From Escherichia coli (GTDB taxonomy: Bacteria > Pseudomonadota > Gammaproteobacteria > Enterobacterales > Enterobacteriaceae), in the NCBI RefSeq assembly GCF_024700885.2, contig NZ_CP117016.1: a stretch of 64,000 bases of DNA. The stretch is one strand, 5' to 3'. Each line of letters opens with the position of its first letter. Positions within the stretch are counted from its first letter, which is position 1. Under the pieces are notes generated by a model that did no database searches, had not been told where the DNA came from, and worked only from the letters and a program-made list of their open reading frames with translations. Made by a program: the position numbers and the translations under genes. Shown one piece after another: positions 5,552 through 6,695 of this stretch.

Positions 5552-5772
5552 TGCAGGAAAGCAGGCTGGAGTTACCCAGCCTGCAGTGAAATTAAACTGT
5601 TGTCGCTTTCACTCTTGCTTTATAGATGATTTTTTTGATGCCATCGTTCTACGTGAGAGGTAATAAAACGTTGTTAGTTCTAACTTGTTAAGTTTATCCC
5701 AATGTTCTGGAGTGCTTTTCCCTGTTTTACCGTGTGGAATAATAATTTTTGCACATCTAACCATTATTAAAT

Positions 5773-6294
5773 TTAATAATAAGTATCGGGTTTGTTACGA
5801 TAGAATTTTTCTATATCCTCAAGAATATGCTTTGCCTTATTGCCTGTGACTATCTGAGATTCAATTATAGTATCGTTAAATTCTAAAGTTAAAGAGAACT
5901 CTTTTTTTCCGCTTTGTGTAAGTTTAACCTTATATTGATTACCAATATCAAATAAAAAGGTCCTGTAATGAGAATAATCACCTTTAACCTCCTCGGCAAA
6001 ACAGCAAAGCGTGCAAATATACATACAATCTTTCTTACCCCTGATTTTGTTAACTAAATCAATAAATGCGTGAAAAACTGTACTTGCAATAGAACTTGAT
6101 ACTTCTTCTCCAGGTCTACAAAAATCTTTTGCAATTTTTAACTGTGTTTCTATATATAAAAAGAGATCTTTGGCATAAGAGAAATCTTTGGCATAAGAGA
6201 TATCTTTGGCATAAGAGATATCTTTGTTATTTAGTGTATCTAGCTCTACAGGTAAAGATGTCGTTTTGTTGCTATTCACATTTGATATATTCAT
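5773..6294 (-). CDS. Hypothetical protein, AT-rich orphan at the yjbS locus (173 aa) with internal 6-aa tandem repeat
   Basis: ORF track 5773..6333; start placed at Met of MNISNVNSNK because AAGGAG lies 9 nt upstream on the coding strand. Strongly AT-rich relative to neighbours. Not recognised by me; relation to K-12 yjbS unverified. Confidence 0.5.
   Translation of the reverse strand: MNISNVNSNKTTSLPVELDTLNNKDISYAKDISYAKDFSYAKDLFLYIETQLKIAKDFCRPGEEVSSSIASTVFHAFIDLVNKIRGKKDCMYICTLCCFAEEVKGDYSHYRTFLFDIGNQYKVKLTQSGKKEFSLTLEFNDTIIESQIVTGNKAKHILEDIEKFYRNKPDTYY
6166..6226. repeat. 18-bp direct tandem repeat, about 3.4 copies (atctttggcataagagaN)
   Basis: Read directly; lies in frame within the orphan ORF and encodes KDISYA-KDISYA-KDFSYA. 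Confidence 0.85.
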
Positions 6295-6695
6295 ATCATC
6301 ATCTCCTTCGGGAGTAATAAAATTAGTCACCATTGTAGGGTAGGGGGCTGGTCAATCAGAAATCATCTTTATAAACTTCGATTGTTTTTGTAATGCTGTA
6401 TCATTAAGTTTATTAAATCGTACAGCAGATAAATGTTCTATCAAATTTCGCTCATTTGCAGAGGATTCATCATAATAAACGCAAAATTAATGTATTCTTA
6501 CATCGCGTAATAAACATTTTTTTTACAAAAAACGACAGGAACGTATTTACTGGGTTAAATATAATCATCCTGCTTTTCATCACAAAAACCGCAGATAATC
6601 CTTCCTTTCCCCGGCTGCTGGCGTTATGGTCAGATGGTTTTTGCAACAAATCTCACAATAAAAAGTTTCAACATACTGACTATTTAGGGAAAAAT

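Follow-up and report, generated by a model that had tools for sequence, protein, structure and literature searches.

A full-length form of yjbS in an AT-rich islet between tyrB and aphA in Escherichia coli

The yjbS reading frame between tyrB and aphA

The analysed stretch is a 64 000 bp window of the genome of Escherichia coli strain 1190 (NCBI RefSeq assembly GCF_024700885.2, contig NZ_CP117016.1), in which the genes tyrB (end at 5551) and aphA (ATG at 6696–6698) are separated by a spacer of 1144 bp (5552–6695) with a GC content of about 30%. The minus strand of the spacer carries a long open reading frame (ORF), which on alignment with K-12 is the intact form of yjbS, the 67-amino-acid YjbS of K-12 being its frameshifted stump. 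GC content, calculated over 200-bp segments, was 0.29–0.34 across approximately 5600–6600, versus about 0.5 or more in tyrB and approximately 0.45–0.53 in aphA.

The ORF extends over 5773–6333 and encodes 186 amino acids from the ATG at 6333, or 173 amino acids from the ATG at 6294. The full-length yjbS coding sequence (CDS) was set at 5773–6294 on the minus strand, with the same start as K-12 yjbS; it comprises 173 codons and TAA, and corresponds to a protein of 20.0 kDa with an isoelectric point of 6.3. A Shine-Dalgarno sequence, AAGGAG, is located at 6308–6303, 8 nt ahead of ATG 6294, inside a leader (6295–6333, minus strand) that reaches back to the in-frame ATG 6333, which has no ribosome-binding site. 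Because the 13 codons upstream of 6294 encode different residues in different strains (MVTNFITPEGDDD and MVINFITRDGDDD, among others), ATG 6294 is the likelier start; in the leader 6 of 39 alignment columns were variable. The start codon and the Shine-Dalgarno sequence were kept in all alleles compared.

Close to the 5′-end of the CDS, an 18-bp in-frame tandem repeat (6162–6226, minus strand; Tandem Repeats Finder: period 18, 3.6 copies, 95% matches) encodes the motif KD(I/F)SYA in three full units, in the window KDISYA-KDISYA-KDFSYA. A polar N-terminal stretch of about 28 residues, the first 25 being MNISNVNSNKTTSLPVELDTLNNKD, is predicted to be disordered, and the cysteine-rich motif CMYICTLCC occupies residues 90–98. 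No hydrophobic segment was found in the protein (maximum Kyte-Doolittle value over 19 residues 0.89), and YjbS would accordingly be a soluble protein of 161–173 amino acids, depending on repeat number. When the spacer was shuffled 2000 times with dinucleotide composition preserved, the longest ATG-to-stop ORF averaged 55 amino acids (maximum 141), and since none of the 2000 shuffles yielded an ORF of 161 amino acids or more, yjbS is not a chance ORF. GC content at third codon positions (GC3) was 0.25 in the ORF against 0.53 in tyrB.

A reading of the window made from its letters alone, without database searches (the sequence-only reading), had already pointed to a sharply AT-rich spacer of about 1.1 kb and to a minus-strand ORF of 173 amino acids with KD(I/F)SYA repeats and CMYICTLCC. 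Both agree with the GC profile, the measured length and the ORF described here. Its AAGGAG Shine-Dalgarno sequence was likewise found, at a spacing of 8 nt instead of the 9 nt it had given, and its aphA start was one base off. It had further given only a short yjbS for K-12, which at 67 amino acids is correct, and had considered that the window might hold a longer ancestral form of the gene, in accordance with the comparison that follows.

K-12 YjbS (67 amino acids, locus b4621) begins at the same ATG as the window ORF. The two share the locus, the ribosome-binding site and, apart from repeat number and a few substitutions, the first 46 residues. Over the 1401 bp spanning the spacer, K-12 DNA was 96% identical to the window: K-12 lacks 36 bp (two repeat units), one base whose loss shifts the frame after codon 46, and one base in an A7 run. 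The frameshifting base is located at 6119 (minus strand, GATTTTT[G]TAGA, the bracketed base being lost), as shown by the window/K-12 alignment and the K-12 translation, and its deletion leads to 21 out-of-frame residues and an early stop. The A7 run, at codons 129–131 (5902–5908, minus strand), is a recurrent site of inactivating deletions in the allele alignment: it is reduced to A6 in K-12, 2014C-3011 and 116333, spanned by a 10-bp deletion in O157:H7, and adjoined by a 2-bp deletion in F163.

Uninterrupted ORFs of 161, 167 and 173 amino acids, corresponding to one, two and three repeat units, were present in other strains, and changes in the repeat were always multiples of 18 bp. The three-unit allele of the window was rare (28 records at ≥99% identity). 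In the window, in K-12 and in 20 other loci, yjbS lay between tyrB and aphA, with these two genes on the other strand.

Distribution, annotation and relatives of yjbS

Megablast with window positions 5400–6800 (1401 bp) against 5426 complete E. coli genomes recovered the region at full length in 4329 genomes, K-12 included; the yjbS ORF region was present in 4350. The islet that harbours yjbS was lacking in about 1075 genomes (approximately 20%). The genome collection is biased by many K-12 laboratory derivatives. Intactness was estimated from carriers picked at even intervals along the ranked list, in two samples of 60. In the first sample, 28 of the 60 carriers had an in-frame span (528, 510 or 492 bp), 21 the K-12 type span (490 bp), 4 the O157:H7 type span (481 bp) and 5 other frameshifted lengths, and the remaining 2 were interrupted; in the second sample 34 of 60 were in frame. 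Of seven in-frame RefSeq loci that were retrieved, one was interrupted by a nonsense codon and the other six were intact. Combining the in-frame sample counts with this ratio, the whole protein is expected to be encoded by about 45% of the carriers, which corresponds to approximately a third of the complete genomes.

At least seven distinct lesions were recognised among the sampled loci: the K-12 single-base deletion, the A7 to A6 change, the 2-bp deletion, the 10-bp deletion of O157:H7, an extra T in a T5 run, a nonsense codon, and insertions of IS5-family and IS1 insertion sequence (IS) elements. The gene is broken in both K-12 and O157:H7, and the O157:H7 isolates of the two samples (4 and 3 genomes, respectively) all shared the 481-bp form. 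In several strains IS1, IS5-family, IS150 and ISVsa5 elements were inserted in or beside yjbS or aphA, which suggests that IS elements target the AT-rich region.

RefSeq, by its PGAP annotation, labels intact yjbS a “frameshifted” pseudogene, often together with a separate, spurious CDS of 83 amino acids at the C-terminus, both in strain 1190 itself and in the other genomes examined. This labelling appears to be a systematic annotation artefact, the likely cause being that the reference protein is the truncated 67-amino-acid YjbS of K-12. The third or so of complete E. coli genomes predicted to have an intact allele could be affected by the mislabelling. Correcting the K-12-based reference would restore an E. 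coli-specific protein to pan-genome tables, and this correction of the reference annotation is the main practical value of the present analysis. In UniProt and the AlphaFold database (AFDB), forms of 167 and 186 amino acids are present as “uncharacterized protein”. Thirteen papers were found to mention yjbS, and the long form is dealt with in none of them.

With phmmer, run exhaustively over 1.84 billion representative proteins, there was no homologue outside E. coli, and only fragments of yjbS within it. The two non-E. coli matches (P0071, P0076) were Arg/Gly-rich repetitive junk translations, and the apparent distant relatives P0026, P0038 and P0050–P0056 were frameshifted translations of yjbS itself. 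A scan of one genome per bacterial species with two peptide patterns, which a diverged orthologue could escape, found no genuine locus outside E. coli. The one apparent case, in “Flavobacterium paronense CECT 8460” (L014, NZ_JAUFQN010000013.1), was rejected as E. coli contamination; that contig is 9.5 kb long and shows 99.6% identity to uvrA-aphA-yjbS-tyrB of E. coli. Plasmid and phage collections, searched by tblastn, added nothing new, with matches only to chromosomes filed as plasmids.

Searches of NCBIfam, Pfam (nine alleles) and PDB profiles gave no significant match to YjbS. The best hit in PHROGs, at an insignificant E-value of 0.007, was to a family of unknown function, and in PADLOC no family was hit at E-values up to 1. 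The best and only PDB sequence match at an E-value below 10 was the N-terminal domain of SipA, with an E-value of 0.8. By sequence and by profile, YjbS thus had no significant similarity to a known type III effector family; the N-terminal and core domains of type III effectors (VirA/EspG, the PipB2 N-domain and the SipA N-domain) are among the nearest known systems for comparison.

AlphaFold modelling was of moderate confidence, with a predicted local distance difference test (pLDDT) value of 63 when the entire protein was modelled and of 70 when residues 42–173 were, and with predicted template modelling (pTM) scores of 0.59 and 0.68. The two runs agreed on a disordered tail, three helices, a four-stranded antiparallel meander and a C-terminal helix. 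In AFDB50, Foldseek recovered the YjbS entries themselves and weak matches (E-values from 6e-5 to 3e-3, 10–15% identity) to uncharacterised proteins of E. coli, Shigella and Salmonella, and no convincing structural relative. The weak matches hint at a wider structural group. They include A0A2X2HGS0, Q8XC25, A0AAN3TTQ2, A0A376VBI9 and A0A7U0K863; a literature search for Q8XC25 gave nothing.

Selection, origin and competing explanations

Substitution rates were calculated from 12 distinct intact yjbS alleles, and for the flanks from the last 150 codons of tyrB and the first 100 codons of aphA of the same strains. For yjbS, dS was 0.095 (maximum 0.19), dN 0.038 and the ratio of dN to dS (omega) 0.40, compared with dS 0.072, dN 0.004 and omega of about 0.06 for tyrB, and 0.033, 0.002 and about 0.05 for aphA. 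The amino-acid change in yjbS was 10–20 times that of the flanking genes, and the similarity of its dS to that of neighbouring tyrB fits a long vertical residence. For the most divergent pair of yjbS alleles Fisher's test gave p = 0.013, and the variable sites were distributed over the three codon positions as 14/22/32. Along the protein, omega was 0.39 in the N-terminal tail and repeats, 0.17 over residues 44–100, 0.88 over residues 101–150, and about 1.0 over residues 151–173. Purifying selection on yjbS, proposed by the sequence-only reading as a check, is thus present but weak (omega about 0.4), and is centred on the helical part.

The islet in which yjbS is located covers approximately 950 bp at about 30% GC. 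Its extent, 5604–6556 with approximate boundaries, was set from the GC profile and because islet-lacking genomes and the Salmonella spacer realign from about 6557. Islet-lacking genomes matched the window only to about 5565 and then again from 6557, and the region 6557–6695 (plus strand), 91% identical to these genomes and alignable with Salmonella, represents the ancestral upstream region of aphA outside the islet. In Salmonella the whole tyrB–aphA spacer is 186 bp, the aphA-proximal part of which aligns from about 6557. Neither terminal repeats, a target-site duplication nor notable flanking direct or inverted repeats of the islet were found when looked for; there was thus no mobility signature (integrase, flanking repeats, tRNA), nor an identifiable donor in the collections searched.

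The same site is used by other DNA. In Ecol_745, the only islet-lacking genome examined, tyrB and aphA were separated by a 13.8-kb island with genes for a sensor kinase, a sigma-54 regulator, an Ldh-family oxidoreductase and a DASS symporter, and with a second sucDC-lpdA-odhB-E1 set. By its gene content this island matches the KguS/KguR island (c5032–c5041), which is inserted between tyrB and aphA in the uropathogenic E. coli (UPEC) strain CFT073 (PMC3694859). The insertion point is common to both elements. The larger one differs from the yjbS islet of about 1 kb in its size, its two-component system, its transporter, its second 2-oxoglutarate dehydrogenase/succinyl-CoA synthetase set and its demonstrated role in fitness, and the two have no sequence in common. 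A single intergenic site thus occurs in three states: empty in Salmonella, with an orphan islet of about 1 kb, or with a 13.8-kb metabolic island. An apparent KguR-YjbS fusion (P0052), as if from a strain with both islands, was discarded, its contig being a chimera of metagenome assembly. This contig, L030 (ENA ERZ27273331 contig_1024_polypolish), contains a long poly-A run and at 5001–6285 combines kgu-island sequence with yjbS sequence of islet carriers.

In K-12, a 318-bp promoter island presumably lies within the 3′ half of what was ancestrally the long ORF, at about 5734–6051 of the window. The tyrB/yjbS region of that strain is one of 78 “promoter islands”, which are H-NS-bound, associated with foreign genes and poorly transcribed (PMC3661553, Table 1; Panyukov and Ozoline 2013). 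The window islet has the same AT-rich composition; the difference is that the cited work treats the region as non-coding regulatory DNA beside a gene of 67 amino acids. [quoted passage not shown]

Taken together, intact long-form yjbS is interpreted, with a probability of roughly 0.8, as a real gene, confined to E. coli and weakly constrained, which is decaying as an accessory gene in a horizontally acquired islet. The islet itself is probably xenogeneic, and it is H-NS-bound in K-12 and decaying; evolutionarily this is a familiar type, at a site already known to vary. Horizontal acquisition is favoured because the composition is atypical (GC3 0.25) and the gene is confined to E. coli, and the islet is absent from the same site in the related genus Salmonella. 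It is inserted in what was formerly a tyrB–aphA spacer of about 190 bp; its transfer may have taken place early in the history of E. coli, the donor being unsampled, and H-NS would keep it largely silent. The product would be a dispensable, non-enzymatic protein; at a guess, a partner might be bound by the conserved face of its helices, and the sheet domain would be free to vary. The gene would be of benefit in certain niches only, and would decay where it is unused. As an orphan gene visibly decaying through many independent lesions, yjbS provides a compact evolutionary example.

The sequence-only reading had suggested a hypervariable locus, possibly of horizontal origin. The locus is indeed hypervariable, with one to three repeats, at least seven lesions, about 20% of genomes without the islet and a Salmonella spacer of 186 bp, and horizontal acquisition fits the GC content of 0.30, the GC3 of 0.25 and the restriction to E. 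coli. It had also cautioned that one orphan gene is not a system, and rightly so, as nothing adjacent (tyrB, aphA and a doubtful ORF of 51 amino acids) forms a partner. Its estimate of the ORF as the window's best candidate for undescribed biology stands only in part, since the protein is already recorded in UniProt and AFDB as uncharacterized, selection is weak, and about half of the carriers have lost the gene.

Several observations weigh against the favoured interpretation. Omega of about 0.9–1.0 over residues 101–173 and the loss in about half of the carriers could equally mean that yjbS has no present function in any strain. A diverged orthologue in other Escherichia species could be missed by the two-pattern scan. 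The AlphaFold alignments comprised 9–10 near-identical sequences, and three of the five models per run fell below a pLDDT of 55. Horizontal origin is deduced from composition and distribution, with a donor that would be unsampled. A promoter and terminator scan of the spacer gave promoter-like matches no more frequently than by chance, and the idea of a binding protein is a guess.

A competing explanation is that the ORF is a relic, formerly a gene or a piece of some larger imported element, now functionless in all strains and drifting under H-NS silencing, with the intact copies simply not yet hit. It would account for the disruption of about half of the carriers by at least seven distinct lesions, for the near-neutral omega of the 73 C-terminal residues, for a dN 10–20 times that of the flanking genes, and for the IS elements landing in the yjbS region; the K-12 region is moreover an H-NS-bound, poorly transcribed promoter island, and the neighbouring ORF of 51 amino acids is clearly decaying. 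The relic explanation is, however, weakened by an omega of 0.17 over the 57 codons of residues 44–100 and of 0.40 overall, significantly below 1, and by the start codon and Shine-Dalgarno sequence kept in all alleles. In addition, dS of about 0.1–0.19 between intact alleles implies a long stop-free period in DNA of 30% GC, in which random ORFs average 55 codons. We consider a relic unlikely, though a serious contender.

Improbable on the present evidence is the explanation that YjbS is a substrate or effector of type III secretion, either by the second type III secretion system of E. coli (ETT2) or by that of the locus of enterocyte effacement (LEE), with the disordered Ser/Thr/Asn-rich N-terminus as signal, and that it decays with the machine. 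YjbS would then be a secreted or injected host-interaction protein, conceivably a missing ETT2 substrate, with the repeat as a spacer and the sheet domain facing the host, an elaboration to which we attach similarly little weight. The ETT2 cluster occurs in the majority of strains, though widely eroded by mutation, a pattern that yjbS would parallel, and it is not known from phylogroup B2; O157:H7 is LEE-positive. Under the ETT2 version, the loss of yjbS in K-12, O157:H7 and many others would be part of ETT2 decay, and in the O157:H7 genome examined two other ETT2-cluster genes were pseudogenes. The polar first 25 residues, predicted to be disordered, would suit a secretion signal, but an AT-rich gene encodes Asn/Ser/Lys/Ile-rich sequence anyway. 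SipA is the only PDB match at an E-value below 10, but the E-value of 0.8 speaks against relying on it. ETT2 effectors are largely unknown, and one of them, EspE3, is encoded outside the ETT2 cluster (PMC11068852).

Nearly all genomes with the ETT2 ATPase gene sctN carried the yjbS islet, with about 13 records having sctN alone; conversely, many genomes with in-frame yjbS lacked sctN. The gene was present in 15 of 34 in-frame and 3 of 26 disrupted carriers, a sample confounded by K-12 clones, which leaves 19 of the 34 in-frame carriers without it. Three O157:H7 genomes in the sample had sctN and yet a yjbS broken by the 10-bp deletion. The co-occurrence is also explicable by common descent if one lineage lacks both, and as support for type III secretion it was set aside as confounded by clonal sampling.

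Of comparably low probability is the proposal that YjbS is an orphan protective protein, either an immunity protein against polymorphic toxins (of the contact-dependent inhibition (CDI), Rhs or colicin-like type) or a one-gene defence against phages. In keeping with this, YjbS would be a small and soluble alpha/beta protein that evolves fast and has no relatives; its islet is variable and AT-rich, and its core is constrained while the sheet domain varies freely. Yet there is no adjacent toxin gene or remnant among the neighbours tyrB, aphA and the doubtful ORF, PADLOC and PHROGs gave nothing significant, and Pfam and NCBIfam, which contain many immunity-protein families, gave no significant match. 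A secretion substrate or a protective factor, if true, would raise the importance of yjbS. Finally, a contingency locus, switched reversibly by repeat change and slippage in the A7 and T5 runs, is very improbable: repeat copy number does vary from one to three and several lesions fall in or beside the A7 run and one in the T5 run, but gain or loss of an 18-bp unit always leaves the frame unchanged, a tract of A7 is short for switching, the lesions include irreversible ones (10-bp and 2-bp deletions, a nonsense codon, IS insertions), the K-12 allele has two frameshifts, and alleles are fixed within clones, as is the 481-bp form of O157:H7.

Other features of the spacer and its surroundings

The most conserved stretch of the islet, upstream of yjbS and non-coding (6351–6450, minus strand), had a sliding nucleotide diversity of about 0.01 versus 0.045 in yjbS, and is probably the promoter or regulatory region of the gene. 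A single weak sigma-70-like match was located at 6444–6417. In Rfam, nothing matched the spacer.

Just after the tyrB stop, a GC-rich hairpin, GCAGGCTGG-agttac-CCAGCCTGC (5561–5584), was read from the sequence. It probably serves as a terminator for tyrB and, from the opposite side, for yjbS; it went uncalled in the terminator scan, as the hairpin is not followed by a T-run. This part of the spacer varied little among strains, and Salmonella and one B2-type strain had a different hairpin-like sequence at the same position after tyrB.

The small second ORF (51 amino acids; 5609–5764, minus strand) begins 8 nt past the yjbS stop, has no Shine-Dalgarno sequence and is located in the most diverged patch of the islet, nucleotide diversity peaking at 0.135 in 5701–5750, just downstream of yjbS. 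It was open in 9 of 23 loci and shortened to 15–48 amino acids in the others, with two main haplotypes containing compensating indels. Pfam and NCBIfam gave no match for it, and it occurred only in E. coli. Its status is doubtful and it was not counted as a gene; its candidacy as a partner gene of yjbS, from a possible likeness to the HicA toxin, was dropped in view of the absence of a family match and of conservation.

On the other side of tyrB, the alr–tyrB interval, which is only about 250 bp in the window, contained in some strains a gene for an AAA-family ATPase together with pnuC (L006 16189–17747, L009 4501–5504), forming a second variable spot beside the first.

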